DNA of 64,000 bases from Chlorokybus atmophyticus (Eukaryota; Plantae; Mesostigma and Chlorokybus algae): the NCBI GenBank assembly GCA_009103225.1, contig RHPI01000249.1, positions 30,730-94,729 of the forward strand, given 5' to 3'. Both the position numbers and the translations under genes were made by a program. Of the stretch, positions 8,928-51,066 are shown piece by piece. Below the pieces are notes generated by a model. That model was not told the DNA's origin. It did no database searches and saw only the letters and a program-made list of their open reading frames with translations. How positions within the stretch are numbered: the first letter of the stretch is position 1; the number at the start of each line of letters is the position of its first letter.

Positions 8928-9465
8928 GCACTCCGCAAATACGTGCTGAAGTACGAGAAGAACACTTGGGATGACCACCTCCCATGGGTGGCCCTTGGAT
9001 ATCGATTGTCAAAGCAGGCGGCTCTGCGGGAGTATAGCCCGTACTACCTGCTGTTCAGGCGACCACCATTGCTCCCCTTCCGTGCGCAACAGGAGGTGGA
9101 TCGCGTCGTGAACAACCTTGACGACCCTGACTGGATGCACCACGACATCACCACGCGCGCCGCACTTTTCGAGCGCACCGTCCCCATGGCCTTCAACAAC
9201 CTGCGCATCGCGCAGCATCGCGACACGCTGCGCTACGAGCGCGTACGCAGCGGCTTCTACAAGGAGCGCCAACGGCGGTTCCAAGCAAGGGACTTTGCCT
9301 ATCGCATGGCAGCTACCAAAGACACGCTTGACACCTCCGTAGGCCGCACCGTCTACAAGGTACTCAAAGTGTACCCCACAGGGGTGCTGGACCTCCTTGG
9401 TCAAAACGGAGAAAGGTTGAAGGACAACATGGTGAACTGTGCGCCATGTCACCTTCCTTACGTAG
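8928..9465 (+). mobile_element. Ty3/gypsy integrase C-terminal fragment (same family as the 35035-44091 element)
   Basis: ALRKYVLKYEKNTWDDHLPWVALGYRLSKQ...YSPYYLLFRRPP...NLRIAQHRDTLRY...NCAPCHLP, the typical post-core integrase region of algal/bryophyte Ty3 elements. Confidence 0.85.
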
Positions 9466-12400: not shown

Positions 12401-14960
12401 GCATGGAGTAATGCAATCTCCTCGTCCATAGCACGCTGCCATTGCTCGGGATTCGGTGCTAACAATGCCTCCTCATAAGTGCTTGATTCTTCACTCTGCA
12501 TACTGGCAACGTGTGCTTTATGATAGAAGTCAGGTGCTGATCTTTGCCTCCCAGGGTATCTTCGAGCTGCACGCTCCTGCTGTAGGTGCGACTGCTTGTC
12601 TGCTACAGTGGAGTCCTGCTCACCCTTGTCGTCGATGATGGCCTTGCCTGCAACTCCCCCTGTTGTAGGAAGTTCCTCCGGCTCTGCTTCATCTCTATCT
12701 CGAGGAAAGAAGCCTGCTTTTGGTTGTGATAATCCCTCGTGGAAAACCACCTCTCTGCTCACGATGACCTTTTGAGTGTCCTCCAGCAAGATCCTGTAAG
12801 CCTTGGAACCCGGCTCATAGCCAACGAAGATGCCCTTCTTGCTGACCGGCTGCAACTTGTGCCTGAGCTGTTTAGGCACTAGTGCATATGCTGTGCATCC
12901 TAATACACGCATACCACTCACATCTGGTGTGGCTCCGTAGAAGAGCTCCCACGGCGTCTTTTGCTTCAAGCTCACCGGAGACCTGTTGCGGATGTAGTTG
13001 GCAGTGAGTATTGCCTCCTTCCACAAACTATCTCCAATCCCTACATCATTGAGCATAGCTCGAACACGCTCCAGAAGTGTCCTATTAAGGCGTTCAGCTG
13101 CTCCATTTTCCTGCGGGGTGTAGGGTGCCGTTGTCTCGTGGCGTATGCCCTTGCTGGCGAAAAACTCTTTCAACTCCTGGTTGATGTACTCCCTCCTCGG
13201 TCACTCCTCATTGCCTTCATCTTGTTGCTAGCCTGCGTCTCCAACAAGGCCACCACTGTGCGCACAGCTCCAGCAACTTCTGACTTGAGCGCCAATGGGA
13301 AGATGATGGACAGCTTGCTGTAGTCGTCGAGGAATGTAGCAAAGTACCTGGCCCCTCTTTGCCACAATGCGCATAGGGCCACAGACATCCATGTGCACAA
13401 GCTCGCAAGGATGCTGACTGCTAGAAGAGGATAACGGGAATGGCATAGCATGCTGCTTTGCAACTAGGCATGGTTCACAAAGTGCATCTGATGCATTCTT
13501 GAGTTCTTCAGTGTCGAAATGGATGCCGTTGGCCATCTTTTCAGTAACAAGGTGAGTGAGGTTAACGTAGCTAAGATGCCTGAACTTCCGATGCCATGAT
13601 GTTGGCGACTCCTTGTCCATCACCACCATGGCTTGAATATCAATCAAAGTCTTGAGGCTGCTCCACGTGGTAAAGCCCTCTCGGACCAGCGATTTCAACC
13701 ATGAGCACGACCCCATTTGAAATGACTGAGCAGCCACCCTTCAAAAATATGATCTCCGCGCCTAAGCGCTCCGCAACCCTCACAAAGAATAGACTCGCAA
13801 TAGCCTTAAGAACACGCAGGACGTTGCGTAACAACACCACGCGTAGTGTGTTACCAACCTTGCACTGCAGTCATACGTTGCCAACTCCCTCAGCCACCAG
13901 TACTTCGCCACTGAAGCCCGCTACCTTCACTGTAGACGTCAGCTTCTTGTGACTCTCCATCTCCTTATTGGGTGTGAGATGACAATCGTAGCCAGAGTCC
14001 ACCACCCAAAAAGCTGTGTACTCCCTCGAACTGGATGCGGTGAAGGCAACATGTTTCTGCTTGTGATGATGCTCGTTGCTGCTGTTGCTGGTACTTGCTC
14101 TAGGTTGCCCCTGTTGTTTCTTTCGACAGTCTCGCTCGATGCGACCCTTCCAACCACACCAATGGCATGTAAAAGGTCTTTGTAACGAGGGTTGCCCGGC
14201 TTGTTGCCCTTGTACTTCTCTTCATGGTTGCTCTTCTTTGCGTGCTTGCCGGTGTAGAAGGCGACGGCATCAGCTTGTCCTTCTTCACAACTCTTGGCTC
14301 CACGGTGAGCAGCTTCGGTAGTACATCGTCCAATGTCAACTCCGATGATGACGTCACCAGCAGGGTTGCAACGACCTCGTACTCTGCTGGTAGCCCTGCA
14401 ACAATGGCCAGCATGACCTCCGTCTCTCCCATGCTGTGGCCTATGTTGATAAGGTCCGCCCATAGCTCTCTTGCGCTTGCAACATACTTCGTGATGGGTT
14501 CTGCGGCCTCCTTCCTGAGTGCACTGAGCTGCTTGCGGTGATGCAACTTTCTGGCATTGTTCTTGGCTCTGAAGACGGCTGATAGCTTTTCCCAAGCTTG
14601 ACTACCATTCACATGCAATGAGCATGGGAAAGTGATGCGGTTTGCAGTTCAACACAAGCAAAGAGTGTGCTTTTGCTGAATGCTCTAACCACACAGTGTT
14701 TGCTCTTGGTGTTGTTGGTGGTGCCTTCGGATCAACATACTTCCACACCTTCTTATGGATGAGCAAGGCCTTCATCTCCACGCACCATGTGTTGTAGTTG
14801 TCGGTGTCCAGTTTTGCAATCTCCCCTTGTCGTAGGTCGCTTCCATCTTTGTCGTACCTGCCTTTTCTTGCAGTTGACACCCAAGGCTCTGCTACCAACA
14901 AGCTACAGTAGTGTAGAATTACTATGCACACAAGCTAGTCTCACACTCCTCAAGCGTAGT

Positions 14961-19800: not shown

Positions 19801-19864
19801 AGAGCACGGGCTTGCTCTCCCCCTCGACATCTCCTTCGCCTACAGCTGCGCAGACTGGAGCTTT

Positions 19865-22155
19865 GTCGAGTACCTTCTCATCCTTTAATGACGGCAGTGC
19901 CAAGTGCCAGCGGTGTGGTTTTGGTCTTTGCATTAACGAGCCCGCAGTTGGTGACAAGTGTTCTCACCATCTGCTCCTGAGTTATCTCGATTGTATGAGC
20001 CGCCCTATTGCGCTCAATCACCATACCAAGGAACCACTTGACCTCTCCAAGAGCACAAACTGAGAATGCTTGCCGCAAAGCAAGTTTCGTCTCCTGCATG
20101 TGGTGCACTTGCCTGGCGATGATGGTGATATCATCCACATACACGAGCAGCCAGACCTTGTTGTCTGCATGGATGAAGAGCCCAGGGTCTACTCAGGATG
20201 CCATGTAGCCAAGTGCATCAAGCTCCTTCGTGAGCTTGATGTGCCACATACATCGTGCCTGTCGCAATCCGTACCGCGCCTTGATCAGCTTAAACGCTGT
20301 GCCTCCCTCTTCATATCCAAGTGGTTGCTCAATAAAGATCTCCTCCTCCAGCTCTCCGTAGAGGAAAGCATTCATCACAACCGGGTGCACTTGGATCATC
20401 ACGTGATGCAGCTCTAGATCTACAGCAGCAACCACAGCTAGCAATGCACGGAAGCTTCCTTGGGGTGGTATGCTTACTTGCAGGTGCAAATACTTCGTTG
20501 AAGTCCACACCTTCATGCTGCAAGAAGCCCTTTGCCACCATTCTTGGCTTGTAGCGCTCAATGTTGCCTTGACCATCACGCTTCACTTTGAACCCAGTTT
20601 ACTAGAATGGTCTTCACTCCTTGCGGTATCTGCTCCAGCGACCAAGTGTTGTTGGCATGGAGTGACGCAATCTCCTTGTCCATACTATGCTAGTAGCACG
20701 CTGCCATTGCTTCGCATTTAGTGCTAACAATGCCTCCTTATAGGTCCTAGCCTAGTGCCAGACTGAGGCTCCTCATTGTGCACACTGGAGACTTGTGCCT
20801 TGTGTAGGTCTCCAGGTTCCTTTGTCTGTCTCACTAAATGTCTCCAGGCTGCGTGCACCTGCTGCAAGTGCGGCTCCTTATAATCTGCTACAGTTGAGTT
20901 CTGCTCACCCTTGTTGATGATGGCCTTGCTTGCAGCCTCCACTGTTTCAGGTGGCTTCTCCGGCTGTGTTTCATCTTCATCTTTGAAAAAGAAGCCTGCT
21001 TTTGGTTGTGATAAATTTTCGTGGAAAACCACTTCTCTGCTCAATGCTCGATGATCTGCTGAGAGTCCTCTAGCAAGATCCTGTAAGCCTTAGCACCCAG
21101 TTTATAGCTAACGAAGATGCCCTTCTTGCTGATCGGCTCCAACTTGTGCCTGAGGTGTTTAAGCACCAGTGCATATGTTGTGCATCCGAAAACACGCATA
21201 CCACTCACATCTGGTGTGGTTCCATAGAATTGCTCGCACTGAGTCTTTCGAGCTCATTGGAGACATAGTGTGGATGTAGTTGGCAGTGAGGACCGCCTCC
21301 TTCCACATACTGTCTTCCATCTTTGTGTCATTAAGCATGGCTCGAACCCGCTCCAGGAGTGTCCTGCTGAGCCGTTCAGCTGCTCCATTCTGCTGTGCAG
21401 TGTGTATGGTGCCGTCGATTCGTGGCGTATGCCCCTTCTCGCGAAGAACTCCTTCAACTCCTTGTTGATGTACTCCCCTCCTTGATCACTCGTGATTGCC
21501 TTCATCTTGTTGCCAGACACGCTCTCCAACAAGATCATGACTGTGCGCACGACTCCAACAACTTGTGACTTCAGCGTCAAAGGGAAACTGATGGGCAGCT
21601 TGCTGTGGTCGTCGAGGAATGTAGCAAGTACCAACCCCTCCCTTCGCCACAATGCGCATAGGGCCACAAACATCCATGTGCACAAGCTCACAAAGATGCT
21701 AGCTGCTAGAAGAGGAGGATGGAAATGGCAAAGCATGCTGCATTACAACGAGGCATAGTTCACAAAGTGCACCTAATGCATTCTTGAGTTCTTCTGTACT
21801 GAGATGGATGCTCTTGACCATCTTTTTGGCGACAAGGTGAGTAAGGTTAACGTAGCTCAGATGCCCGAACCTTTGATGCCACAATGTTGGCGACTCCTTG
21901 TCCTTCACCACCATGGCTTGGATGTCTCTGTTATAAGGCTGCTCTACAGGGTAGAGCCCTCCCGGATCAGCGAATTCAACCATGTGCACGACCCCATGAA
22001 TGATGAATGAGCAGCCCACCCTGCCGGAATACTATTTTTGATCCTAAGCGAGTAGCAATTCTCACAGAAAACAGACTCGCAATAGCCTTTGGAACATGCA
22101 GGATGTCTCATAACACATCTTTGTATGTTACCAACCTTGCACTGGAGCCGGATGT
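19865..22155 (-). mobile_element. Ty1/copia internal fragment (copia-2), a degenerate relative of copia-1
   Basis: Collinear with ~11640-13870: WHQRFGHLSYVNL, HMDVCGPM, QGGEYINKEL, YVDD, KTKTTPLALG; many frameshifts. Confidence 0.92.
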
Positions 22156-22159
22156 TGCC

Positions 22160-22545
22160 TGTTGAAATTCAGACAAGCTACTACACATGCATGGAGCTGG
22201 TGCAAACACTGATACACACACGCATGCTAAATAATGAGCATAAGCACGCACAACAAGCTTAGATTACCATGAGTTTACGAGCTTTTGTACCCCGCCAATC
22301 TCTACACACGTTTACTCTAGCAAGCACCATGTAAGCAAGTTTTGCCACATAGCTAGTTTTACACGCTTTTCAGCAAGCTATACCACGCGCCATAAGATTA
22401 ACTACACACGGAGTTCTTGCCATCCCTCTGGAGCTTTGGGCTGCGCCAGCCTGCGCCAGACTCAGCCGAGTCCGGAGTATTCGGGCTTGCTCACACTCCG
22501 CGTTGCACACTGTCCAGATATCGGCCACTGGACTCACAACTGCTT
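22160..22545. repeat. Possible copia-like LTR remnant
   Basis: Starts TGTTGAA at the point where copia-2 homology ends; composition resembles 14975-15398; right end not clean. Confidence 0.35.
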
Positions 22546-22649
22546 GATATTAGTCCTTATACCATAACCACTGGTACATTAAAGACTTAGCCATTTCACG
22601 CTGCCGGAACTTGTCCATAATATGCACTGTGCAACTATGCAAGCCAACT

Positions 22650-23335
22650 TTTAACACTCCCATGCGGGCAGCTTGGAATGCTTCACTTCACATTTTCAAT
22701 TCTTTGTCAAGGTAGTCACCATCTTCAACATGCTCCCCGCTCTTCTCATAAGCGCCTCCTTGAAGTTCAGCACCTGCAAATCTTTATAATAGCTCACATA
22801 ATCCTTCATCACTACCTCTCTGCTTGTGCTCCCACATGCACTGCTCCTCTGGCAACGTCCTGCACTCCTCTCCGCACCGCAACACCTCCACCATGCTTCT
22901 CCTCTTTCTCCTTGCTGACGCCACCAGCTCCGTCATCTCCCACGGGCTCCGGAACCTTATTTCCCCCCATCTTGTGGCCTTCAGCAGCAACCCTCACCTG
23001 AGCAACCGCTCCCTTCCCTGCCGTCTTTGCAGCTCCAGCTCTAACTTGTACTCCGGGCACCATGGCCTTTTTCTTCTTCTGTCTCGCAACCGGTGCTGAT
23101 TTAGTCACCTCCACATCTCCAGTTTTCTTGTGCAGCTCCGCACCCATGACCGCTTCCTTGATGTAGTAAAGTCCTCCATCGTTTATCCAAACAGCCAACC
23201 AGCCGTGTGACACCATCCAACACAACCTTGCCTATGTCCCCATTAGACACTGTCATAGCACCTGCTCTAGCCGCAATGCGCACAGAAAGCAGGCTAGCTT
23301 CTAGCCCCGGGACATACAACATCTCTCTTAATAGT
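22650..23335 (-). mobile_element. Internally deleted copia fragment (copia-3)
   Basis: LYVPGLEASLLSVR...GLYYIK (PR to pre-integrase linker); TTAACACTCCCATGCGGGCAGC at ~22650 matches the PPT/LTR junction of copia-1 at 10921. Confidence 0.65.
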
Positions 23336-23339
23336 CACC

Positions 23340-24150
23340 AATGGAAATGGGTTTTTGCAAGTCAGGCTGGATCCGCAACTTGTTCATGATTGAATGCAAA
23401 GTTTGTTAAGGATCCGCAAGATCCCTAATAAATTTATGGCTACATCCCTTATCCGGTTCATGCCTGTCACAAAAGCGCTTTTTCGTCGACACTTCCTTGC
23501 AAATAGATCCATAATTAAATTGTGGCTATGTTTTGAACAAATTGCCATCAACCTCTATTGATGCTCTATACGAAATAAATCCTTAATAAAGTTGTGACCT
23601 CCTCCAGCTTTTGTGCCCCATGACCAAAGGCCCTAACAAGATTGTGACTTGAACTTGGTAATACACTTGAGTTGCAGTCACAATATACTCTTGGTTAACT
23701 CCGCAACAGTGATCCCACAACACGGTTTCGTCGTAATCCCTAAGTCGGGACCAGCTCCAGTCTAATTTTACGAGCTGGCAAAGGGTCCAATGAAGTTGTG
23801 GCCCCATGCAAAACGAAATTAACGCTAAAGGCATAAACTGTTACTTGCTTTTTTATTACTTGCTCCAGCTTCAAATGTTATGACCGCATTCATAACTTTG
23901 TTCAGCGCTACACCCAGTGTCTTTGTGTGTTTCTTGCTGAGTCCCAGATCTTATGACCGCATCCACAACTGTGTCCAGCCTTACACCTAGTGTCGTTGTG
24001 TTTTTTTTTTTGTTTTTCTGCTAAGTCCCAAATGTTATGGCTACTTCCACAACTTGTTAAATTGTCACCCAGTGCTGTTGTGTGAATTGGTCTAAGTCTC
24101 AGATGTTATAGCTGCAGCACCAAGTTGATTGCTGCTACACCCACATGGAA
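23340..24150. mobile_element. Third member of the TIR-type family (left arm plus subterminal repeats)
   Basis: 23342-23580 is closely similar to 10670-10910; followed by ~72-83 bp tandem units starting (G/C)TTATG(A/G)CCGCA-like, the reverse complement of the 18913 unit core. Confidence 0.6.
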
Positions 24151-24613: not shown

Positions 24614-25129
24614 TACATGATATAAATATTAAAACCGCATTGCGCACCAACGAGTAGGTGTTTACTGGATGGTTGGCCACAATACTTGGTCCGTGCTGTC
24701 AATCATTCTGCGGTCTCATAAAAAGCTATAAAAATAAGCGATGTCATTTATGTATACTTTTTAACGTATGCTTTTTATGCATAATTTTAAATATATATAA
24801 GAGGTATACGTTTTTTTGAATATGTACACGAAGTATACATAAAGAAATTTACTTTTTTTATGCATACTCCTTATACATGAATTTAAATATGTATAATTAT
24901 ACATACACAAGTATTGAAGTATTATATAAGAAGTAAAAGTAATACTTAGGTGTCAACGCATAGAACATGTTAATGGTGCATGGTCACAGATTTTTGCAAA
25001 GCCCCTTACAGCTTGATTGACAGCCGGCCGCCGATTTGCGGCTGTCCACGGTGTATAGCCAGACAGTCGGTGCGGCTTGTCAGTTAACACGTTAAGTGCA
25101 CTTGTGCAATCAGGCATTTAGGCAATCTA

Positions 25130-25440
25130 TTGCACCGGTCACTAGTCCGTGCCGCACCGTACATGGTGTGGCACGGACTGTGCGGCACCGTGTACGGTGC
25201 GCGCTAGTAGGGCCACAGGACCGCGGGACCGCACCTGGTCCGTCCATGGATGGTGCGGCACGGACCATGCGTGGTGCGCGTCGCCGCGCCAGCCATTCAC
25301 GGGCCGCGGGCCCCGAGCGGACCAGGAACGATCCGTCCCCCGTGGACCAGGCAGTCCTGGCCCGCAGGATACGGTCCATGCGTGGTCCGTGGGGTCCGTA
25401 AAAGGACCATGCATGGTCCTTCAACGTCAAGCCGTGTGAA
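25130..25440. repeat. GC-rich palindrome-dense element, possibly a MITE or Helitron end
   Basis: 15-bp stem AGTCCGTGCCGCACC/GGTGTGGCACGGACT (1 mismatch); hairpin GCACCGT-GT-ACGGTGC followed by CTAG-T; many GGACC/GGTCC motifs. Confidence 0.5.
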
Positions 25441-25460
25441 TGGTATGCCGGAGTGATCTA

Positions 25461-25632
25461 CAGTCTAACCTCGATAAGTGCATACCATCGGGAACACCTC
25501 TTTCTATGCACTTATCGCGGATATGCACTTACGCTGCTTTATACTACCAGTAGAGTGCATTGGTGTCGGGCAAAACCATGCACTTATCGAGGATATGCAC
25601 TTATCAAATATGCACTTATCGAGGTTAGACTG
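25461..25632. mobile_element. Tc1/mariner-superfamily (pogo-like) MITE, 172 bp
   Basis: Perfect 24-bp TIR CAGTCTAACCTCGATAAGTGCATA; TA TSD at 25459-25460 and 25633-25634; internal repeats of TATGCACTTATC. Confidence 0.93.
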
Positions 25633-25854
25633 TACAACTACAACGCCAGCAACAGTAAGACAATACCTCTTGTTGCATGCTGATAGTGCAGCATGCAAAC
25701 CAACGCGTCGCGCTGACCAACATCTCTTGATGCAGCACGACACAGCATGCGCTCTCATGATGGTGACCTGCAACATATGCACACAGACAAATACAACATT
25801 GTGGTTTGTGTAACATGCATCGGCGGCGATGTATGCATGCGCATTGGTGGTTGA

Positions 25855-26589
25855 AGATTACCCACTCATAAGCTCATAAGCCTTGGATTGCTAGACCTCT
25901 GTTGTGGAGGCGGGGGGGCCAGCATGGGGCTACACCGCGCTGGCCTTGATGTTACAGGAGTTGACATCTAAAACCAACCAGAGTACCCATTCCCATTCAC
26001 TTTGGGCGATGCACTTACAGTCGACGTGGCTGACTACGACGTGGTATGGGCCAGCCCACCATGCTAGGCCTTTGTGCGCTGCATACCTGAGAGCCAACGC
26101 GAAGCGCACGTGCATAAATGGAACCACATCATGCTGCTACATGACTTGAAACAACGGCTCCAAGCATCAGAGAAGGCGTACATCATGGAGAACATCCTCA
26201 GTGCAGCTCAGCACATGCGGAGCGACGTCGTGCTGTGCAGCACGACGTTCGGGGTACCTACGTTCCGACACAGAGTCTTCGAGACTGTGCCCCTATTGCA
26301 GGACGAGATGGTATGCGATCATGCCAACAAGAGTCTCGGCCAGGTGTCTGAGCACCCTACACACAACTTCACCTCGCAACAGGCAATACAACACCAAATG
26401 TACCCAGTTCATGGTCAAGCTGCCTCGCGTAGAACACTTGTAGGTTGGCAAGCAGCATTGGGCATTCATTAGATACAATCAGGTTGCACTATAGTTGAGT
26501 GCATTCCACCTGCATATTCAGAGTACCTAGGTTGACAGCTGCTGCATGCCTTCGGCTACACAGTCATCAACAATCCTCTGTCATGGTAA
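25855..26589 (+). pseudogene. Intronless prokaryote/phage-type C5 cytosine DNA methyltransferase pseudogene
   Basis: One frame: [42 protein letters not shown]...[11 protein letters not shown]...AYIMENI...VLCSTTFG..TFRHRVFET...AALGIH*...ECIPPAYSEYLG*QLL. Motifs I, IV (SPPC), VI (EN), VIII (RHR) and X are present. Four stops: 25969, 26065, 26470, 26533. Confidence 0.85.
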
Positions 26590-26690
26590 TAGTATGATAG
26601 TGCGATGGTTGCAATCATGCTGTGCATGCAGAACGCTGTGGAGTTGCTGCATGTCGGGCTGATGGTTGTATGCTGTAGATGCTGCAGTTC
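26573..26690 (+). pseudogene. Degenerate PHD finger (BRPF/JADE/ATX-like PHD1) abutting the MTase
   Basis: With two 1-nt shifts it reads CHGNSMIV-CDGCNHAVHAERCGVAACRADG-WLYAVD, versus the consensus MLxCDGCNVAVHQxCYGVxxIPEGDWLCxxC; first CxxC not intact. Confidence 0.55.
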
Positions 26691-28038
26691 AATGTATGCA
26701 ACCCACTCGTGTACACGCCCTCAGGTGCACGCAGTGCCTTGTGTCACACACACGCCTTACACCCCCNCCAGGATGCTGAAGCCCACCCACCCTTATGCAC
26801 GATTGCAAGCATCGCCCCTAACTGTCACACATGCAACGAAAATCACAGTGCAGTTAACATACCACAGACAACAACTCACGCAGTGACTGCATCTGAACAC
26901 ACAGTCAACCTGTGACACGCAATTCAAAGATTTTCGATGATTCAGTCTCGTGCAAGTTGTGCACACATTGCATTACTCGTCTGGTAAGACTGTACACATG
27001 CCTAGCACTAGCATCTGCAACTTGCAATGTCAAAATTAACACAGAACTTAACTATACGAAGACAAACACTGCTATTGCCACATACAAGGCTATACAAGGC
27101 TGATAGCATATACGCACTACTAGCACTGCCAACTCTGCAAGTGTGTGCAAGCGGGTGCAGTTAAACTAGCGAAACCACACCAATGAGGTCCACTAGACTA
27201 CATGCCTACCCCAATACTTACCACAAGACAGCCAGGCTGTCAGCTGCCACCTCAGACCAACTAACAACTGTGCAAGAGGGTGCAAGGCAACAGGAGATCA
27301 GTCAACAGGCAAGCCCACACCCGCCAGCATCATTCAAGGGGACGTAGCATTACCTGAACCCTTTCTGTAACAGCACCACCGTCGCCGGTGATGCCCCTTC
27401 AATCCTCTACCCCAACACCCACACCGCCTATGACAAGCCTTTTAACGGCGTGGCCGCCACTGAGCTGAGAACTGAAAGTCCCCACATCAGATTAATGTGA
27501 CCTTTTATATCAAGAGTATATCAGCTATATACCTCTCGATAATTAACTCACAACTAGACATCGACCCTACAGATAGGGTAGTTAGGAAATCTAGCGTGAG
27601 CCAACCACAGCTTAGATAAGGTACCTATCGATAAGGTACCTATCCAAAGATACCTATCGTAAGGTACCTAACGAGATAGTGATCCCAATATATCAAATGT
27701 GACATTAAATAGGCTTGAATAAGCGGTTCTACACCCATTGGGACTTATTTAAGCTATGATAAAGCATCATAGCCTTTAATAAGCGAGGAACCGTAGAAAA
27801 GAGGTACAGTTAAGCATATTTAAATACTTATTCATACAAAATGTGTTATTCAAGTAGCAATAATACCCCTATTATTAGTGCTCCCGTAACATTCCCCCCC
27901 ACTTAGGTTTTCAACGTTCTCGTTGAACTCAAGTTGATCAGGCTTGATTGCGAGTAATTGTAACCAGAGAGATAGCAGGAAATGACAGGGTGGTAATGAA
28001 ATTGCACTGCCAGTCTGTCATAAAACCAAGCCCACAGT

Positions 28039-28473
28039 TTATGGGACATGACATGAATCCCAATAAGCTCGAAGCAACTCGTGGCAGTGCGTAAGATGCC
28101 TGTCGGGCTCCCAACTGTTATGTTCCGGGCCATACCCTTTCCATTTCACCAAATAGCGAGTTGCGCGTCCTCGACTATTTAGTTTATGGTTCAATATAGC
28201 TTCCACCTCGTATTCGAGCTCGCTGTCCACCTCAACTGGCGGTGGTGGAGGCTGTGTTCTACCGTCTGAGCGGTAAGGTTTCAACAAGTCTACATGGAAC
28301 ATGTTGTGTATACGCACACTTGGGGGCAATTGCAGTCGATAAGCGTGCGTACCAACTCTATCAGTGATAGAGAATGGACCTAACCATCGGGGCAGCAACT
28401 TGCGAGCGCCCGTACCTTTGATGGTTATTCTTGCGTTAAGCAAAACTTTATCGCCGACATCGAAAGTGGCCAT
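28039..28473 (-). CDS. Integrase GPY/F motif plus chromodomain (frameshifted from pol)
   Basis: KLLPRWLGPF; FHVDLLKPY; YEVEAILNHK...YLVKWKGYGPEHNSWEP. Confidence 0.93.
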   Translation of the reverse strand: MATFDVGDKVLLNARITIKGTGARKLLPRWLGPFSITDRVGTHAYRLQLPPSVRIHNMFHVDLLKPYRSDGRTQPPPPPVEVDSELEYEVEAILNHKLNSRGRATRYLVKWKGYGPEHNSWEPDRHLTHCHELLRAYWDSCHVP

Positions 28474-28476
28474 TTT

Positions 28477-31161
28477 TCAATGTGTATCAGCATAAGCTTT
28501 TTGCCTGTCCTGTGCTTCTGACAGACACAGCTTGGCTCGAGCCAAATTTTCTTGCATATCAGTGGCAAATTCCTTTACCGCTGGTACAGTCAGAGCATTG
28601 CGAGGTACACGCAATGACGCTGGTGTGTTCGGGCGAATCCCATAATTCAAGAAAAATGGGGTTTCCTTTACACTTTCCTGCCAAGCGTTGTTCACAGCGA
28701 ACTCTGCCATTGGCAAGTACCTATCCCAATCAGCATGATTAGGAGCCACATAGTGGGGAAGCATTTCTTCCAGTATTTGATTTGCTCGCTCAGTTTGACC
28801 GTCCGTTTGCGGGTGGAAAGCAGTCGGCATGCTTTGTTTTACCCCCAACAATTCACAGACTTCTCGCCAAAACTTGGAGACAAACCGAGGATCACGATCT
28901 GTGACAAGTTCACGCGAAAGACCGTGGACGCGAAAGACCGTGGACACAAATAAGTGTGCCAAGTCCCGTGCACTTACAGTTGTGCAACACGGGGCAAAAT
29001 GCACCAGTTTAGTCAAACGGTCGACAAAAACCACAATAGCAGTGTATTTAGCGGCTGTTTCATGTAGGTCAGTAATCAAATCCATACTGACACTATCCCA
29101 CTTTTGTTCTGGAATTGCCAATGGTTTAAGCAATCCCGCTTGTTTTTGTCGTAGTGGCTTATTACGTTGACACACGTCACATGTGCAAACATATTGATCC
29201 ACGTCAGCTGACATTGACGGCCACCAGTATAACTGTTGCGCAGATTTGAGTGTTTTGTGTTTCCCCAAATGCCCAGCATACGGCGGGTCATGCACTGAAT
29301 GCGACTTGCGTAAGCATTGCTTACGCAAGTCGCCCGAGTTGGGAATTGCCAACTGCTCCCCTTTATACCACAGATTGCTAACAGCAGTAAGCTGTTGCAA
29401 GTTGGTTTGACTGCTAAACCAATCATCTGAGTTATAACCTGTGGACACTTCCTTTAAGAAAGGATCTTCAGGCTGTTGTACATTACGCGTAGTTCCAGAG
29501 CGCGTAAGTGCCAAAAGAGCAGGGCTGCGACTTAGTGGATCCGCCACATTGGTGCGACCCGGCCGGTATTGCCAAGTGAAAAAGAAACGAGAAAGGACTT
29601 CATTCCACCTAGCTTGCCGCCTCGACAGATCTTGTTGCGTATGAAAGAATGTGAGCGGGTTGTGATTAATAATCACCAAAAACTCCACCCCTTCCAAGTA
29701 GCAACGCCATGTGCGCAGCGCGTGCACCACCCCGAGCAATTCCTGCTCAGTGGTTGTGTAATTACGTTCAGCAGGAATGAACTTTCTGCTTTCATATGCA
29801 CATGGTCTGTCATCTTGTAGAAGGACTGCCCCACACCCAATGGTGGAAGCATCGCTGATCACCACAAAAGGCTTGGTGTGGTCGGGGAAGGCTAACACAG
29901 GGGCTTGTGTTAATGCATCTTTAATGCGTGTAAAAGCAACCTCGTGTGCCTCCGTCCACACAAATTTAACATCTTTTCTTAGTAAAGATGTTAAAGGATT
30001 TGCCATGCCAGAATATGCTCGCATGAACTTGCGAAAATAATTGGCTAGCCCCAAGAAAGCACGTAACTGATGTACATCCTTGGGTGGTGGCCAATCCTTT
30101 ACCGCACACACCTTTTGAGGATCTGGTTTCAATCCTTCTTTGTGAATCACATGCCCTAACAAGGGTAGTTCATCCTTTGCAAAGTTGCATTTGGACAGGT
30201 TGGCATAGAATTTGTGTTCGCGTAACTTAGCTAGAGCCAATTCCACATGCCTGTGGTGGTCCTCCCGAGTTTTGCTGAACACAATGATGTCGTCTAGATA
30301 TACCAGTACAAACTTGTACAATTCATCAGCAAATACCGCGTTCATTGCTGTCTGAAATGTAGCCGGTGCATTTATTAACCCAAATGGTAACACTTTATAC
30401 TCAAAGTGTCCTCGTGGGGTGCGAAATGCAGTTTTTGGAATATCCGACGGGTGGATTTTGATTTGATGATAACCACTGGTCAAATCCAGCGTGCTGAACA
30501 CTGTTGCACCTGACAGCTTATCAAACAAATCATCAATCCGAGGCAAAGGGTATCTGTTTTTCACAGTTACCTTGTTCAATGCACGGTAATCAATACACAT
30601 GCGTAGCTTGCCATTCTTTTTGGGCACAAACAAAATTGGTGCACCAAAAGGAGATATGCTCTTTGTTATTAAACCTTTGTCCAATAACTCTTTGAGCTGT
30701 TTTTCCATTTCCGCGTGTTGAAAGGGACTTAGCCTATAGATAGGCCGCCAAGGTGGCTTTGCCCCCTCTTCCAACGGAATGGTATGATGTATGTTTCTAT
30801 CAGGAGGCAACTCCGGGAGTTCATCTTGAACTACATCTGCATATTGTTCCGTAAGTGATTGCACCACAGGGTCAGCTACGGCCTGTTCAACAGGTGTTTC
30901 TACCTGTTGTAAGTGCATCAAATATACTTCCTCACGTTTGCGCACGCAACATTTTAGTTGCATAGCAGAGAGGAGCGGAACATTGTCGCGAGCAACACGT
31001 GCGAGTACAGGTGCGATTAACGTCACCACGTTTACCCTTACGAAAGGTGCACGTATCTGCTCGAGAGTCCAATTGCAAACCTGCTTCGGTGTGCCACTGC
31101 TCACCCAAAAACAACATCCACCCCGGGGATACTTATATCCACCACGATGAAAGTTGGTCAA
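28477..31161 (-). CDS. Chromovirus pol: RT, RNase H, integrase
   Basis: RMCIDYRALN, LPFGLINAP, YLDDIIVFS, SDASTIGCGAVL, ELLGVVHAL, HLGKHKT..CDVCQ, VSMDLI, TDRDPRF, QTDGQTER. Confidence 0.97.
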   Translation of the reverse strand: MTNFHRGGYKYPRGGCCFWVSSGTPKQVCNWTLEQIRAPFVRVNVVTLIAPVLARVARDNVPLLSAMQLKCCVRKREEVYLMHLQQVETPVEQAVADPVVQSLTEQYADVVQDELPELPPDRNIHHTIPLEEGAKPPWRPIYRLSPFQHAEMEKQLKELLDKGLITKSISPFGAPILFVPKKNGKLRMCIDYRALNKVTVKNRYPLPRIDDLFDKLSGATVFSTLDLTSGYHQIKIHPSDIPKTAFRTPRGHFEYKVLPFGLINAPATFQTAMNAVFADELYKFVLVYLDDIIVFSKTREDHHRHVELALAKLREHKFYANLSKCNFAKDELPLLGHVIHKEGLKPDPQKVCAVKDWPPPKDVHQLRAFLGLANYFRKFMRAYSGMANPLTSLLRKDVKFVWTEAHEVAFTRIKDALTQAPVLAFPDHTKPFVVISDASTIGCGAVLLQDDRPCAYESRKFIPAERNYTTTEQELLGVVHALRTWRCYLEGVEFLVIINHNPLTFFHTQQDLSRRQARWNEVLSRFFFTWQYRPGRTNVADPLSRSPALLALTRSGTTRNVQQPEDPFLKEVSTGYNSDDWFSSQTNLQQLTAVSNLWYKGEQLAIPNSGDLRKQCLRKSHSVHDPPYAGHLGKHKTLKSAQQLYWWPSMSADVDQYVCTCDVCQRNKPLRQKQAGLLKPLAIPEQKWDSVSMDLITDLHETAAKYTAIVVFVDRLTKLVHFAPCCTTVSARDLAHLFVSTVFRVHGLSRELVTDRDPRFVSKFWREVCELLGVKQSMPTAFHPQTDGQTERANQILEEMLPHYVAPNHADWDRYLPMAEFAVNNAWQESVKETPFFLNYGIRPNTPASLRVPRNALTVPAVKEFATDMQENLARAKLCLSEAQDRQKAYADTH

Positions 31162-31772
31162 GTCTTGTGGCTATTAATAAAAAAACGCTCCTTCACCTCC
31201 CCAATTGCATTAAGGGTGGAACCAGCAGCACGTACATACGACGTGACTGGTGTGAAAGGTATGTTATTACGTTTCACCCAAGCATGTTCAACAAAGTTAT
31301 GGTTTGCACCAGTATCAATTAATGCTGTATATGGTGTACCCATAAGTTGACTCTCAAATCTCCATTTGAGTGGCACTGAGTGACCATCAAATGTAGCTAA
31401 TGTCGGAGTGCCGTGATTGGTAGCAGACTTGATAAAGATCACTTGCAACGGTGAAGATCCTGTATCTTTGCGTGAGAGTTGCATGATTACTTCTCCCCCT
31501 TTCAACAATTGCGACCACGGGCCATGATACCGAGGGATAAATACACATGCAATGACAACATGTTGTAATTGCAACTCGTGTAAGTGCTTAACAGCAGTTA
31601 CTAATTTAGAGAATGGAACATTGATTAAAACACAACCGTTTGCATTTGTCAACACAGGTGGTGTGCTCATATCAGTCCATACATCTGATACATCACAAAG
31701 AGAGGAAACTTTATCAAGAAGTACAGAGCTTTTAAAGTCATTCTGCTCGACTAAGCTACCAACCATGGACAA
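31158..31772 (-). CDS. Dam/N6-adenine-MTase-like remnant followed by aspartic protease
   Basis: VLINVPFSKLVTAVKHL...ACVFIPRYHGPWSQLLKG resembles the NPPF...P.W...W module of phage Dam-like and DIRS 'MT' domains; then ALIDTGANHNF. Confidence 0.55.
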   Translation of the reverse strand: MSMVGSLVEQNDFKSSVLLDKVSSLCDVSDVWTDMSTPPVLTNANGCVLINVPFSKLVTAVKHLHELQLQHVVIACVFIPRYHGPWSQLLKGGEVIMQLSRKDTGSSPLQVIFIKSATNHGTPTLATFDGHSVPLKWRFESQLMGTPYTALIDTGANHNFVEHAWVKRNNIPFTPVTSYVRAAGSTLNAIGEVKERFFINSHKT

Positions 31773-31775
31773 TTC

Positions 31776-32936
31776 CTATTTCTTGTCTCTCTGCTGCTTG
31801 GCCTTCTGTGCATTCTGTTTTGCATAGCACTTAGCCTCCCCATGACCTGTCTTCTTGCAGAAACTGCAAGTGATGATGGATTTGGCCGCGTTGTAGGGGC
31901 TAGCAGGATGAGATGTTTTCGCCTTTTTCACAAAAGGTTTGTTGTCAGTGGCCGGGCGCTTTGCAGCTGAAACCGGGGCTGCCTCTTTTGCCGTTGTTTG
32001 CATGTTTGCGTGAGAGCGCTTTACACTGTCCACAGCAGCAACCATCTACATCAGCATTGGTAAATCCGTCGAGGCCCACTCTTGCAAACTCGCGGGGTTG
32101 ACGGCCACATGCTGCACGAGATCTGTGTACAAGCCATGCCTGAACATATCCAGCTGATCAGCATCACTGATAGGTAGTTTGCCAGCATTGATCTTGCTGA
32201 CAAAAGATTGAAAATCCTGGATATACTGCTGAACCGGACGCCCGTTCTGACGCAGGTTGTGCAGCTGGTTGCGAGCAACCTGGGCAGGATCTGCACCACC
32301 ATAGCGCTGCTCCATGAAAGAGCACAACTGATTTACTTCCCGCCCGAGGTTTGTATCCCGTTGCTTACGGCGGTACCATTCTGCCAGAGCATTGTTTGGG
32401 ATTAGCAACTCAGCTACACGCAATTTCCCCTCCTCAAAAATGTGAAGGGAGTTGACATAGTGTCGCAACTTCACAAGCCGGTCGAAGATGGCCGCTTGCT
32501 TGTTAGGAATAAACTCGGCAGGACGAGCAAGAGCTTGAACAGGTGGACCATTATCAGCACGTTGAAGACGCTCGATCATGTTCAGAACCCGTTTGCCTTC
32601 ACCCATCTGCCCCTCCCAATCTCGCCCCATAAAGGTGGTGAGCTTTGAAACTTTTTCTGCCAAAAGGAAGAGAAAGTTCACGAGTGACACAATTGCCTCA
32701 CGAGGGTCATGATCATAGGTGCTAAGGAAATGCTCCATCAAGTCCTGCTGTGTCATGCGAATAGAAAACTCAGGAAATATAGAAGGTGATCTACCATCCA
32801 CTGAAGTTTCCGCAGCTTTGGCAGCTTGAGACTCATCAGGTGCATCATCCGGATTCAGAATATCTTCCATCGATGGAAATTCCTCCTCATGGGAAGGTTG
32901 CTCTTTTTCCGAGCTCTCCCCTTTTGAGGTGGGCAC
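31776..32936 (-). CDS. Chromovirus gag with one internal TAG (32048-32046) and a CCHC knuckle
   Basis: ARNQLHNLRQNGRPVQQYIQDF (retrotransposon gag), then CSFCKKTGHGEAKC. Confidence 0.85.
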
Positions 32937-33159
32937 CGAGTGTTCTTCCCATTGTCTGCAAAACAGGCAGAATGGGATGGTGAGAACCTCACCAATGAAC
33001 CAAGTTCAACGAGAGGATCATAATGACCCCAAGTTGTAAAAGTCCCAAACAGAGTCCAAACTAGTCTCAAAATAAGAAAGGTTGGATCTTGAGTGTCACC
33101 AAACAGAACAAGTCTGAGCGGGACCATAATGTCCTAACCCTGTGTTGTCCTCAACCAAG

Positions 33160-33660
33160 TCCCAATTTCCAGGCCGAAGCTAGAGGGGGAGGGTTTCAAA
33201 CTAACAGGGTTTGGGAACAGATTGTCCTAGAACCTCCCCACAACTGTCCTAACCAAGTCCCGATCTCCAGGCCGAAGCCAGAGGGGAAGGGTTTGGGAAC
33301 AGTTTGGTTTGGAACTTACGGACCCGGATCAAGCGACCCGGCAAAGCCATTGGTAGGTCACGGGTACGTCACAGGCATGCAACAGGCAAGCCACAAGCAT
33401 GCAACAGGCAAGCCGTACGGTGACTAAGTGTGACATGCACTGGCAAGCATAATGACAAGCAATCACCGCATGCAATGACAAGCAATCACTGCAAGCAATG
33501 ATAGTGCACTAAGTGTGACAAACAGTGATGGCACACTAGCAAGCCGCAATCACCGCATGCAATAACAAGCAATCACTGCAAGCAATGATAGTGCACTGGC
33601 ACGTCACTGTGTGATGTGCATGAAAGTACACACGTGCACCTGGTAAGCACCTGGCAAGCA
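33160..33660. repeat. Direct and tandem repeats in the chromovirus 5' leader
   Basis: Duplicated AACCAAGTCCC..CCAGGCCGAAGC.AGAGGGG..GGGTTT unit; repeated GACAAGCAATCAC(C/T)GCA units. Confidence 0.8.
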
Positions 33661-35034
33661 GCTGACAAGCAGGCAAGTCACCGACGTGTGTGATGGTATC
33701 TCACACGTGGAGAGGCCGCCTCTTTAATAGGTGGCTTCAGCTTGGAGGTAGCGCAGGGAAGCAAACTTGAAGCTTGGGCTGCGTGGACGTATAGGAGGCC
33801 GACGCCTTCCGATTGGCCGAAAGCGGGTCGCTGCCCCCTATAAGTGCCCACGTCACCCCCCAGCTCCTGGATACCAATGTAACAGCACCACCGTCGCCGG
33901 TGATGCCCCTTCAATCCTCTACCCCAACACCCACACCGCCTATGACAAGCCTTTCAACGGCGTGGCCGCCACTGAGCAGAGAACTGAAAGTCCCCACATC
34001 AGATTGATGTGACCTTTTATATTAAGAGTATATCAACTATATACCTCTCGATAATTAACTCACAACTAGACATCGACCCTACAGATAGGGTAGTTAGGAA
34101 ATCTAGCGTGAGCCAATCACAGCTCAGATAAGGTACCTATCGATAAGGTACCTATCCAAAGATACCTATCGTAAGGTACCTAACGAGATAGTGATCCCAA
34201 TATATCAAATGTGACATTAAATAGTCTTAAATAAGCGGTTCTACACCCATTGGGACTTATTTAAGCTATGATAAAGCATCATAGCCTTTAATAAGCGAGG
34301 AACCGTAAAAAAGAGGTATAGTTAAGCATAATTATATACTTATTCATACAAGATGTGTTATTTAGGTAGCAATAATACCCCTATTATTATTGCTCCCGTT
34401 ACACTTTCCCTCACGATACTACAACCTATCCCCTTACAGCCGCCGCCGCCACCGCCCATGCCGCCCAGGCCACCACCACCCTCGCCGCCCCAACACTCAC
34501 ATCCTTAATTCGCGCCAAGTATACACACCGCTAACCCTAAGTTTAAACGACGCCGTTTGTCGCGCCGAAGCGCGCAGACATTGCGAGTTCACTTGCGCCG
34601 CTACGCGCGGACTTTCAAAGAACCGCACCGACATTACAAGAACTAGAACCGGTCGGGTCGACGCGGAACATCTATCGGGAAGATATTCAGTGACTCACGC
34701 CATTGCTTTGCGCGACAAAACGAGAACCACTCGGACTCGACAGGCCACAAACCTCGTAGACTCGTTGCGGACTCAACACGACACACTGGGATCCACCTCG
34801 TCCAAATGCGCGCAGGACTTGCAAGATGGGTAGCTCGGAAAACCCCTCCGGGCGGTTCAACTGAAGATGACGAAACTTCGTTTCGACTATCACACACACA
34901 CACACACACCCCAAGCACATCTTGACGTTATTTGTGCGCGGGCGTGCGCGCTTACTACACGCCTTGCCTACTTTGCATCATGCCGTCCCCCTCAGGGCTG
35001 CGTTCCGTCTACAGTAGCTTGTGTATGCTAGCAC

Positions 35035-35689
35035 TGCTTTCTTGATGGTCTGTACCGTACGCTCGGCGAGGCCGTCGGCTTGAGGGTGATCACGCGAGGT
35101 ACGGCGGTGGTCGATGTAACATTTGTCCAAGAGGGTGTCGAATTTCACTCTGAACTCAGTACCTTGGTCAGTGATGACCTTGGCGCAACTGCCAAATCGG
35201 CTGAGAACGTGAGAGAGGAAGGCTTGAGACACCCCCCTGCTGCTCTTGTCGGGTAATGGCACCAGCTCCACCCATTTGGAGAAGTGCTCGATCATGACCA
35301 GGATGTAACGGTTGCCACGCGCTGAGGGTGCCACGTCCCCCAAGATGTCGAGTCCCCATCGGTAAAAGAGGCCGGAGATAAGGAGTGGGTGCAAGGTGGG
35401 CGCTACGCGTGTTGAGGCTGGCGCGCACCATGTCACACTGCTGGCAGTGGCTGATGAACCTTTGCACCTGTTTTGTTAATCCATACCAATATTGTGCCCT
35501 CACTAGGCTGACCGTACGCTTGACACCGAAGTGTCCAAGCTCAGTGTGGAGGGAAGTGATGATGCCCTCGCGCGTGACTGGTGTCGGCACTTCCTTGTCT
35601 TCGTCGTGGAAGCGGCGATACAGCTTGTCACCTGCCCATCGATAGTGACGGGTGCGTTGGGTGACCCGGTCCTTCTCTCGAGCGCTCAT
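35035..35689 (-). CDS. Integrase N-terminus and core (frameshifted), truncated
   Basis: HTELGHFGVKRT..CQQC; WGLDILG; ITDQGTEF; HPQADGLAERTVQTIKKA. Confidence 0.92.
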
Positions 35690-35710
35690 GCCGGAGGGAA
35701 GATGGCCACT

Positions 35711-37354
35711 TTAAAGAAAGAAGAGTGACGGCTTGTCATGCCATATGTCCTGCCTGGTGTCGGGGGGCGCCAGCTCTGTGTCATCAACGTCAATGTCGGC
35801 TGTGTGGGCGTCTTCCAAGGGTGTGGTTGCCGCAGGGTCGGTAGCCTCAAGGGCAGGAATCGCCTCTACCGCTGCTGAGGCCGTGGTGTTGGTCTTGCGC
35901 CCCGAGCGCAACGCGGCAGCAGCAAACATGGCTGCCATGGTGGGGGCTGTTGCTGCAGGGATGAGCTCATGCCGCGCTCCAGTTGCGTCGTTGGTGCTGA
36001 GGTGAGGGTTGCGACTGAGGCCATCGGCATCTTGGTTGGTGAGGCCAGCGCGGTGGTCAATCTCGAAGTCGTATTCCTGTAACAGCAGGGCCCATCGAGC
36101 AAGTTTCTCTGTCAGATGTTGGTTGGTCATCAGCCACTTGAGGGGCTGATGATCGGTGATCAGTTGAAACTGTCGACCAAAGAGGAAAGGTCGGAAGAAG
36201 GAGATGGCCCACACTGCAGCGAGGCACTCCCCTTCGTAGCTGCTGTAGTTGGCCTCGGCGCTGTTGTTGCTTCGGCTGGCGTATGACACCACCCGCTTCT
36301 TCTTGTTCTCATCGTGCTGCGCCAGCACCGCTCCCATCCCCAGCTTGCTCCAGTTGGTGTGAAGGATGAAAGGCTTGGCGTAGTTCGGACGTTGAAGGAT
36401 GGGAGCGCTGGTGAGTCTGCTCTTCAGCTCCTCGAAGGCCTGCTGTTGCGGCTCCTTCCACGCGAACTCCACCTCCTTCTTCAGTAGCTCGTTGAGGGGC
36501 CTTGCGATCTTCGCGAAGTCCTTCACGAACCGGCGATAGTAGTTGGCAAGTCCGAAGAAAGCGCGCAGGCGTGTGAGGTCTGTCGGGGCAGGGATAGCTG
36601 CCAGAGCCTCTACTTTGGCCTGCTGCACATACACACAATGGGGCACAATCACGTGCCCTAAGCACAGCACCTTGTGGGTGAAGAAGGTACACTTGTCGGG
36701 GTGTACGGTCATCCCCACTCCCTTGTTTTGTTCCAGCACCGCTTCGATGTGCTGAAGATGCTCCTCGTTGCTGCGGCTGAAGATGAGGATGTCATCGATG
36801 TAGCACCGCGCGCAGTCCAGCCCCTTAAAGGCTTTGTCCATGACGCGTTGAAACTTGGCGGGGGCATTCTTCAGCCCGAACGGCATTACCTTCCATTGGT
36901 ACAACTGTCGGTTGCCCCAGAAGGAGGTCTTGTGCTTGTCCTCGTCCTTGATGGCAATTTGGTTGTACCCCTGACGCATGTCCAGGATGCTGAAGACTGT
37001 GCAGTCTCCCACATCATCAAAAATACCCTCTGCTGTGGGCATGGGGTACCGGTCTTGCTTGGTCTTGTTGTTGAGGGGGCGATAGTCGCCACACATGTGT
37101 CGCTCTGTCCAGTTGCCTGCTGAATCCTTCTTCAGTGGCATGACGGTTGCTGCTGCGAAGTCCGATGTGGACTCTTCGATAAGGCCTGCATCCAGCAGCG
37201 CCTTACATCTCTGTTCCACCAAGTCTTCTTCCAACTTGGAGAGCCTATATTGTCGTCGGAACACCGGCTCAGTGTCCACCAGCTCGATGTCCATCTGGTA
37301 CACTGAGCATGTACCCAATTCCCCTTCACATTGAAGCTGAATTGGCTCCTCCAT
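35711..37354 (-). CDS. Reverse transcriptase and RNase H
   Basis: RHMCGDYRPLN-like, MPFGLKNAP, CYIDDILIFS, ILHTNWSKLGMGAVL (first RNase H Asp appears as Asn), ECLAAVWA, TDHQPL. Confidence 0.97.
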   Translation of the reverse strand: MEEPIQLQCEGELGTCSVYQMDIELVDTEPVFRRQYRLSKLEEDLVEQRCKALLDAGLIEESTSDFAAATVMPLKKDSAGNWTERHMCGDYRPLNNKTKQDRYPMPTAEGIFDDVGDCTVFSILDMRQGYNQIAIKDEDKHKTSFWGNRQLYQWKVMPFGLKNAPAKFQRVMDKAFKGLDCARCYIDDILIFSRSNEEHLQHIEAVLEQNKGVGMTVHPDKCTFFTHKVLCLGHVIVPHCVYVQQAKVEALAAIPAPTDLTRLRAFFGLANYYRRFVKDFAKIARPLNELLKKEVEFAWKEPQQQAFEELKSRLTSAPILQRPNYAKPFILHTNWSKLGMGAVLAQHDENKKKRVVSYASRSNNSAEANYSSYEGECLAAVWAISFFRPFLFGRQFQLITDHQPLKWLMTNQHLTEKLARWALLLQEYDFEIDHRAGLTNQDADGLSRNPHLSTNDATGARHELIPAATAPTMAAMFAAAALRSGRKTNTTASAAVEAIPALEATDPAATTPLEDAHTADIDVDDTELAPPDTRQDIWHDKPSLFFL

Positions 37355-37569
37355 ATGTTAAGAAGAGCCTCCAGCTTCTCGCGAGTGTCTTCTGTGGCCA
37401 ACGGGCCAATGGCATGGTCCCAGGAGGTTGCATTGGCAACCACAGGAATGTCCTCCACTGTCATTGCTGCTTGCTCCTCCATGTGGATCACCTCGAGGGC
37501 TGTGTGAGCTGCCTTGGTGTTGGCCACGCGATTAGCCCACCCCCCCGGCCAAGTGTTTGAGATCCTTGA

Positions 37570-38550
37570 AGGACATGTGGCGGTCCTGCAACGCGAAGCT
37601 CAGCTCCAGCAGCCATACCATGCTGTTTTGGTTCATGGCGCGACCAAGCAGCTGGCATTGCTGATTGTCCGTCAGCGATGAGCCCGTGATGCTGTTGGGG
37701 AAGAATCCCATGGCGCGTTCACGTTCGCGTGCGTTGGGTTCTTCCAGCCTGTTGGTGGTCGCATCGAACACCATCCCGTCACCACTGTTCCGGAATGCGT
37801 AGGAGCCCGGGTAGGACACCAATGTTGGGAGTGCGCGACGGGGCTGACCGGGCTGATTGCACGGGTAGAAGTGGTTGTGGTCACGATGCAGGACAGGTTG
37901 TGCTGTGCGGCCGGGGTCAAAGATGTCGTCGACCAGCAGGGTGCGCGGCCGAGCGCTGCGTGTGTATTCGGCGGTCATGAGTTCCTCCACGGCGGCCAAG
38001 TTTGTCCATTTGGCACGTACACGATGTGCGCGTGAGCCATGTCGTGCCGCGTTCACCTTGAGTGGGTGCCCCAGAAGGGAGCAAACTTGTCGGTACCTGG
38101 AGGCCACGTGCGGGCGCTTGTCGTCCGCTGAATGCACATTTTCGATGACGTACCCCAGGGGTCTGGAGATCTGGTGGTGTTGAAGGAGGTGGATGATCCT
38201 CATCAGCTCCCAGAACAGCTTGGAGCGAGGGTTTTCGAGGCCTTGCCCCTTGCCTGCCCTGGAGTGCCCTTGGCATTCCCATCCAGCTATTAACAGGTCG
38301 ACGTTGCCGAGGGACAGGAGGTGATCTTCAGTGATCAGCCGGATGTCCTGTGGCAATGCTTTGAGGCTGCTTTGCAACGCCGAGAAGGGTAGTTGACGTG
38401 GATACCTGGCGTGCAGTTGGCGTAAGTGGTGCTTGAGGACCGTTTGCGCGTGTGGGTCGCAGTAATAGTATTTGACAACCTTCACGCCCGTGTTGAGGAC
38501 CGCAGCAAGACCACTGCCAATGCCTCCAAACAGCTCCAACACCGTGATGC
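37570..38550 (-). CDS. C5 cytosine DNA methyltransferase domain (DNMT3/DRM-like fold) inside pol
   Basis: Uninterrupted within the 530-aa ORF 37532-39124: motif I VLELFGGIGSG, II YYYCD, IV LLIAGWECQGHS, RSKLFWEL, VI YVIENV, VIII AHRVRAKWTNL, IX/X PNARERERAMGF...LLGRAM. Confidence 0.93.
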
Positions 38551-41500: not shown

Positions 41501-41622
41501 GCCGCTGTTGACGACGCGCCAGCTTCCCTGCGCGCACGTCTGGATGGTTGTACGCGTGACGGCGTGGGAGTGTCCCTATCCCGTTTCGGTGCCATCAGTG
41601 CCCACCTAGCAGCATAGCAGGC

Positions 41623-43423: not shown

Positions 43424-43632
43424 ACAGCTGATGCGATGGTGAAAGTGGCTGAACGGTAGAGTGTTTGTGCTCTACAATGGGATCTCCAGTGCTGCTATCA
43501 CCCAACACACTAGCGCTTGTGCGCGCTATGCGATGACGGTGACAACACTGCACTGTGATGTGTACAACTACAGATTGCGATGCTGATGTACAGCCTGCAA
43601 CTACACTCACTTGAGCAAAGAGGGTGACACTG

Positions 43633-48732: not shown

Positions 48733-51066
<2,334 letters not shown>

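Follow-up and report, generated by a model that had tools for sequence, protein, structure and literature searches.

Decayed methyltransferase gene and its surroundings

The window analysed here is a 64-kb stretch (64,000 nt) of contig RHPI01000249.1 from the alga Chlorokybus atmophyticus. At positions 25837..26589 of its plus strand lies a compact C5 DNA methyltransferase pseudogene that probably belongs to a clade characterized by an MBD insert. The reading frame runs from 25855 to 26586 (244 codons in one frame, with a terminal stop at 26587), homology extends from about 25860 to 26586, and the single-frame alignment to homologs covers residues ~12 to 244 with no frameshifts and no introns. 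The inferred start at 25837 is the nearest upstream ATG, and starting there adds a fifth in-frame stop at 25852. One intronless frame with four nonsense changes had been claimed in a preliminary description of this DNA and was indeed found: in-frame stops occur at residues 39 (25969..25971, upstream of the catalytic motif) and 71 (26065..26067, directly after motif IV), as well as at residues 206 (26470..26472) and 227 (26533..26535), as read from the translation. The C5 motifs I, IV (PC), VI (EN), VIII (RxR), and X were all found in this order, namely a degenerate SAM-binding motif I (25894..25917), motif IV with the catalytic Cys (SPPC, 26053..26064), motif VI (ENI, 26188..26196), motif VIII (RHRVFE, 26266..26283), and the motif X region (IPPAY, 26503..26517). 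An 18-residue linker (26341..26394) occupies the site at which relatives carry the MBD insert, and a C-terminal tail (26551..26577) follows motif X.

The translated frame, hereafter the window protein, belongs to the phage-type compact C5 methyltransferases, as had been proposed. The PHROG profile phrog_363 matches it over residues 7-230 (E 1.1e-18), and 1106 homologs were obtained at E<=0.001 from 1221 candidates, the best having 34-46% identity and mostly 200-250 residues; many compact homologs share 36-42% identity with it. Among phage records, 305 of 50,697 matched, with identities of 33-35% among the 25 matches listed. Longer proteins accounted for two of 520 candidates, and both had unrelated C-terminal extensions. 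The Pfam PF00145 score was 16.2 bits, under the gathering cut-off of 22. The exclusion of DNMT1/3 was also upheld and extends to DNMT2: the compact family profile reached solved DNMT2 and MET1 only at E ~1e-6 to 6e-5, versus 1e-41 for compact homologs, and the companion domains of DNMT1/2/3 are absent. The segment is a real but dead, decayed pseudogene of a known general kind; because the first stop precedes the catalytic motif, it would yield no active enzyme.

Upstream, the flank (25636..25854) follows a MITE whose 26-nt terminal inverted repeats are perfect (25459..25634), a separate insertion that severs the upstream context, and a second short repeated element (25062..25438), to which numerous overlapping contigs and loose ends of the public sequencing runs X1 and X2 correspond. 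An upstream in-frame stretch was considered as a 2-oxoglutarate dioxygenase because of a motif-like resemblance; with no Pfam match and a single Atlas hit (0.78), this candidate was dropped. Downstream, a near-complete chromodomain Ty3/Gypsy LTR retrotransposon (27366..34403, minus strand) has a 5-bp target-site duplication and LTRs that are 96% identical; the pseudogene lies outside these LTRs, and the element, which shows high summed depth in X1 and X2, is an independent insertion. The right flank of the pseudogene gave no viral or other family match in six frames. Likewise, 198 of the 199 stop-free frames outside retroelements were searched and contained no viral hallmark gene; the families recognized there were limited to TFIIB, PUB, and copia gag.

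Other retroelements are present in the window. A further Ty3/Gypsy element (35168-43471, minus strand), for which no LTR pair was found, carries between protease and reverse transcriptase a second C5 methyltransferase domain (37532-39190, PF00145 E 4.6e-12) with EC rather than PC in motif IV; this domain, presumably of DNMT3 affinity, is unrelated to the pseudogene (best E 0.096). Two related Ty1/Copia copies (10664-14934 and 19859-23580, minus strand) share ~80% identity across 2.3 kb; LTR-like repeats occur at positions 10664, 17622, and 23336. An integrase-tail-like frame without a Pfam match (8922-9719, plus strand) marks one more retroelement, next to a gap in the assembly (7980-8625). 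Host genes occur in exons on the plus strand, encoding TFIIB (57506-58344) and a PUB-domain protein (61728-62546); the TFIIB zinc ribbon and TFIIB repeat fall in separate frames within 57.5-58.3 kb, in agreement with the earlier view of an intron-containing host. At 49192-49773, 291 perfect CT repeats lead up to an N; this (CT)n tract is possibly an assembly artefact.

Contigs from the public runs provided a second view of the locus. At low depth, an X1 contig is identical to the window across 25664-25871, and X2 contains pieces identical to 25969-26153 and 27192-27355. These two runs come from two studies and also contain the flanking MITE and LTR families; either may be the assembly's own sample. 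In addition, X2 holds a diverged copy of 25728-25816 and a second copy of 26011-26099, which has 11 differences in 89 letters (88% identity), lacks the stop at residue 71, and continues in homologous coding sequence; the X2 copies are single contigs at depth 2.5-3.4 and may stem from a second strain in the sample. In runs X3-X6 no contig lies on the pseudogene, and positions 26154-27191 are without cover.

Relatives with an insert between motifs VIII and X

An exhaustive search of 1.84 billion representatives returned the MBD-bearing protein P0134 as the top match (E 3.6e-56, 50% identity). P0134 and its kin match the window protein in two stretches, one on each side of an insert that separates motif VIII from motif X; in C5 enzymes, the target-recognition region lies between motifs VIII and IX/X. 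Relatives were enlarged by profile search and sorted by motif and alignment into group A (n=16) and group B (n=12). The window protein shares 48-52% identity with MBD members across the N-terminal 140-160 residues. Just one of the 16 group-A members scores above the Pfam DNMT cut-off, and the Atlas clusters given for P0134 indicate a compact methylase only.

The insert was recognized as an MBD (Pfam PF01429) in 11 of the 16 group-A proteins, nine of them above cut-off; two of the five proteins without a match stop or leave frame ahead of the insert. For P0283, the insert matches MBD2 with E 2.5e-8. At the R, D, Y, R, and S columns of the MBD2 alignment, which would contact methyl-CpG, the residue is kept in 11, 14, 12, 15, and 15 of 15 aligned relatives, respectively. 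Searched against all proteins collected, the group-A insert profile gave 12 weak matches (E 0.02-1), 11 of which were group-B proteins or cluster mates, and the group-B insert is probably a diverged version of the group-A insert, judging from the sequences. The fold evidence is a model of the relative P0290: from 142 sequences AlphaFold gave pLDDT 93.6 (a first fold from 7 sequences had given 56.7), and this model matches C5 methyltransferases (M.HaeIII, M.HhaI, and DNMT3A) and, separately over 61 columns, MBD2.

A tree was built from 63 rows (the window protein, 16 group-A, 12 group-B, and 34 compact proteins chosen from the best matches) and 214 columns, with insert columns largely trimmed. 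Phylogeny after profile search, which the preliminary description had proposed as a check, places the window protein with groups A and B at 98/96, apart from the 34 compact proteins, and, with 87/90, inside a subclade of group A; it sits on a long branch (1.03), and the bootstrap had yet to settle fully. In the AU test, a tree holding the window row outside the 28 insert-bearing rows was not rejected (p 0.23); therefore, the window copy could be nested in groups A and B or sister to them. The window copy also has a post-motif-IV signature and the C-terminal tail, both motifs having been drawn post hoc from the alignment. This signature is missing from compact phage methyltransferases, and the tail, whose columns fall mostly outside the tree alignment, is of group-A type, as it recurs in 13/16 group-A, 0/12 group-B, and 0/307 compact proteins. 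The frame had earlier been called intact over about 245 codons; it is indeed a single frame, but only 69 of 107 conserved columns are kept, versus 76-100% in 15 relatives (leave-one-out), and ~40-120 residues found in every full-length close relative are missing. The window copy is a degenerate relative of group A, not a working member.

The missing residues fall at the insert. Its length is 56-135 residues in 15 relatives and 18 in the window copy, and no MBD-like stretch was found in six frames of the 64-kb window. The spacing from motif VIII to motif X is 79, inside the compact range (5-95%: 64-80). The linker bears a weak likeness to the start of an MBD helix, with 25 of 5000 shuffles and none of 289 compact proteins scoring as high, in a post hoc test in which one of 15 template segments was mis-picked. 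It is likely, on this sequence comparison, that the window copy lost its MBD through internal deletion.

Clade members are sparsely distributed (16 clusters among 5.8 billion), and each was called from a DNA assembly as one frame without introns. Two come from named algae: GAQ92615 of Klebsormidium nitens, a protein of 665 residues that is internally duplicated and fused to a HIT-like frame on a 17-kb contig, and UNPLg00428 of Chromochloris zofingiensis, on a 10-kb contig. Both keep the MBD and are annotated merely as hypothetical or MBD-containing proteins. The HIT-like neighbour of the Klebsormidium gene had no match in the 64-kb window or IMG/VR. The remaining members lie on contigs of 1.3-29 kb, plus one group-B gene on a 245-kb contig. 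A DNA pattern for the clade, which detects intronless copies only (14/16 group-A and 7/12 group-B proteins), produced two true matches out of 53 in metagenomes, both of group B, none out of 63 in prokaryote genomes, and none out of one in IMG/VR; single-protein scans of IMG/VR likewise gave no clade member, and none of the 80 candidate loci in the IMG/VR check scored above compact homologs.

Marine metagenomes contributed two group-B members with a diverged MBD-like insert, L090:9761-10822 and L098. The L090 contig is densely filled with genes in short, unbroken frames (RING, cold-shock, HtrA-like, DUF3431, and GT47-like), which gives it the look of a giant virus; no viral hallmark genes were found on it, and the clade member that it carries is a group-B rather than a group-A protein. 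In BFVD, both models had their best viral structural match in the C5 methylase of Pithovirus LCPAC201 (E 1.7e-11 and 1.9e-13), which may be just the nearest compact representative. A stand-alone MBD-domain protein of Bathycoccus virus 2 is also present in BFVD (A0A7S6NYA1); algal giant viruses do carry MBDs. In P0135, P0137, P0288, P0240, and P0280, the compact methyltransferase is doubled, in tandem or permuted, within one protein.

Decay and origin of the window copy

The pseudogene contains 32 CpG dinucleotides against a shuffle mean of 50.4, with none of 5000 shuffles as low (codon use uncontrolled). Its CpG observed/expected ratio of 0.63 lies among those of the window retroelements (0.53-0.82), and L090 has 1.28-1.31; CWG is not depleted. 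The preliminary description had attributed the stops to methyl-C deamination on the grounds that three of four read as C-to-T or G-to-A. Such changes make up 44-62% of stop-making point changes at a transition bias of 2-4, so that three of four is unremarkable; the CpG depletion is the better support for deamination. At conserved columns, 10 of 27 single-step changes are C-to-T or G-to-A, a mild shift from the 15-32% expected. Decay under host CpG methylation is likely.

The explanation judged best, and held with moderate confidence, is that the window contains a stop-interrupted, intronless copy of an MBD-clade C5 methyltransferase that was likely borne by a giant virus, likely lost its MBD, and likely decayed through CpG methylation. 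Giant-virus DNA, the likely route to the host, would have carried the gene into the host genome, the MBD would have been deleted internally, and the copy would have decayed under host CpG methylation. Horizontal or viral acquisition had been proposed before, and its foreign-origin part stands; a direct donor among phages or bacteria is unlikely because the closest kin, from a virus-like contig and green-algal assemblies, form a distinct clade with MBD or MBD-like inserts. That a phage or bacterium passed the gene on directly, with an MBD never present, is very improbable and already largely refuted: the length and motif VIII-to-X spacing of the window copy in the compact range, its 36-42% identity to many compact proteins, and the AU result would all fit such a transfer, but the grouping with insert-bearing enzymes in the tree, the higher identity to MBD members over the N-terminal region, the absence of the clade tail from all 307 compact proteins, and the lack of a prokaryotic carrier of the clade signature among 63 matches argue against it.

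Alternatively, the copy might be cargo of a host mobile element, either a DNA transposon or a retro-copied unit, that spread within green-algal genomes. This is unlikely, even though the second X2 copy and the diverged copy of the upstream flank, the transposon-dense region, and the spread of Klebsormidium-like members over several contigs (with truncation or internal duplication in some) all point toward it, as do precedents in the available text of two reports, a DNMT3-carrying Gypsy (PMC5890265) and an MBD-carrying Copia (PMC6673714). No terminal repeats enclose the pseudogene and no transposase frame was found around it; furthermore, it lies outside the Gypsy LTRs, is unrelated to the Gypsy-borne methyltransferase, and has a group-B relative on L090 that is outside any transposon. 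An old green-lineage family of reader-writer orphan DNMTs, passed down by vertical descent but lost or turned into pseudogenes in most species, is quite improbable: members were called in DNA assemblies as single frames without introns, neither named algal copy is normal (one truncated, the other duplicated and fused), both lie on scaffolds of 10-17 kb, and the distribution is sparse, against which stand the presence of named members in one chlorophyte and one streptophyte and the nature of the MBD, a eukaryotic chromatin domain close to MBD2. Contamination or misassembly, finally, is highly improbable; the gene-to-flank junctions are spanned by no contig in the six runs, but a living contaminant would not have four or five stops and CpG depletion, and runs from two studies contain locus-identical pieces together with the flanking repeat families.

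Possible function of the family and comparison with known systems

The intact relatives keep every catalytic motif and, on sequence grounds, should methylate cytosine at C5. By C5 chemistry, their motif I would bind SAM, the motif IV Cys would attack C6 of the flipped cytosine, and the motif VI Glu and motif VIII Arg would be used in catalysis. Placed at the target-recognition position, the MBD would anchor these enzymes on methylated CpG, and this tethering would direct methylation to neighbouring or hemimethylated sites. The chances that the MBD steers the relatives to methylated CpG, giving maintenance or spreading, appear about even; it may instead merely add DNA affinity, since methylated DNA is not preferred by all MBDs (available text of PMC6673714). 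A broader proposal, possible and advanced here only tentatively, is that the clade would be an undescribed minimal reader-writer family, in which a phage-type C5 methyltransferase with a eukaryotic MBD, captured as target-recognition module, copies or spreads 5mC from methylated CpG, is carried by giant viruses into green algae, serves these viruses in matching or manipulating host methylation, and has been missed below the Pfam DNMT cut-off.

Methylation is maintained and spread through read-write coupling, for which large proteins such as DNMT1 with UHRF1 are normally required. The family described here joins a methylation writer, the phage-type core, and a reader, the eukaryotic MBD, in one protein of 270-390 residues, and the existence of intact natural members (such as P0134, P0283, and P0290) makes such coupling directly testable. 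The domain arrangement is apparently undescribed: no account of a C5 methyltransferase with an inserted MBD was found in the literature searched, which lay mostly outside subscription papers, and the accessible portions of PMC3417536, 10.1101/2021.11.30.470311, and 10.64898/2026.10.09.758095 contain no such enzyme. As the family shows, a DNMT inventory that relies on PF00145 overlooks orphan enzymes of green algae.

The compact phage C5 methyltransferases (phrog_363; actinophage and environmental, ~200-250 aa) share the core and motif order with the window protein at 33-42% identity, but lack the post-motif-IV signature, C-terminal tail, and MBD insert of the clade, and the window protein groups away from them. 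Orphan DNMTs of viral source are known in eukaryotes and, according to the main text of PMC12344493, generally lack companion domains; the term MBD appears nowhere in that main text, and the supplementary tree figures may include a clade member. Six orphan DNMTs are assigned to K. nitens in supplementary table 1 of the same report. In Amoebidium, 10 of 18 DNMTs, found with PF00145, lie within viral insertions according to the available text of PMC11244446. Like these giant-virus-derived enzymes (Pithovirus-like in Acanthamoeba and GEVE-borne in Amoebidium, as given in the accessible parts of PMC12344493 and PMC11244446), the window copy is foreign, lineage-restricted, and apparently non-functional; in contrast to them, it belongs to a family with an MBD inside the enzyme and has no viral block around it. 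GAQ92615 and UNPLg00428 are of the same clade, but they keep the MBD, whereas the window copy is without it and is interrupted by stops.

Selfish DNA carrying a methylation writer or reader has also been described among retrotransposons, namely the DNMT3-carrying Gypsy elements KnitGypsy-Dnmt3 (available text of PMC5890265) and the MBD-carrying CopiaMBD (available text of PMC6673714). The MBD clade resembles both in this respect. Their domains, however, are host-derived and lie inside Pol or the element frame, whereas the clade consists of small phage-type proteins that combine writer and reader outside LTR elements. Within the window, the Ty3/Gypsy element at 35168-43471 resembles KnitGypsy-Dnmt3, as presented in the available text of PMC5890265, in the placement of its methyltransferase.
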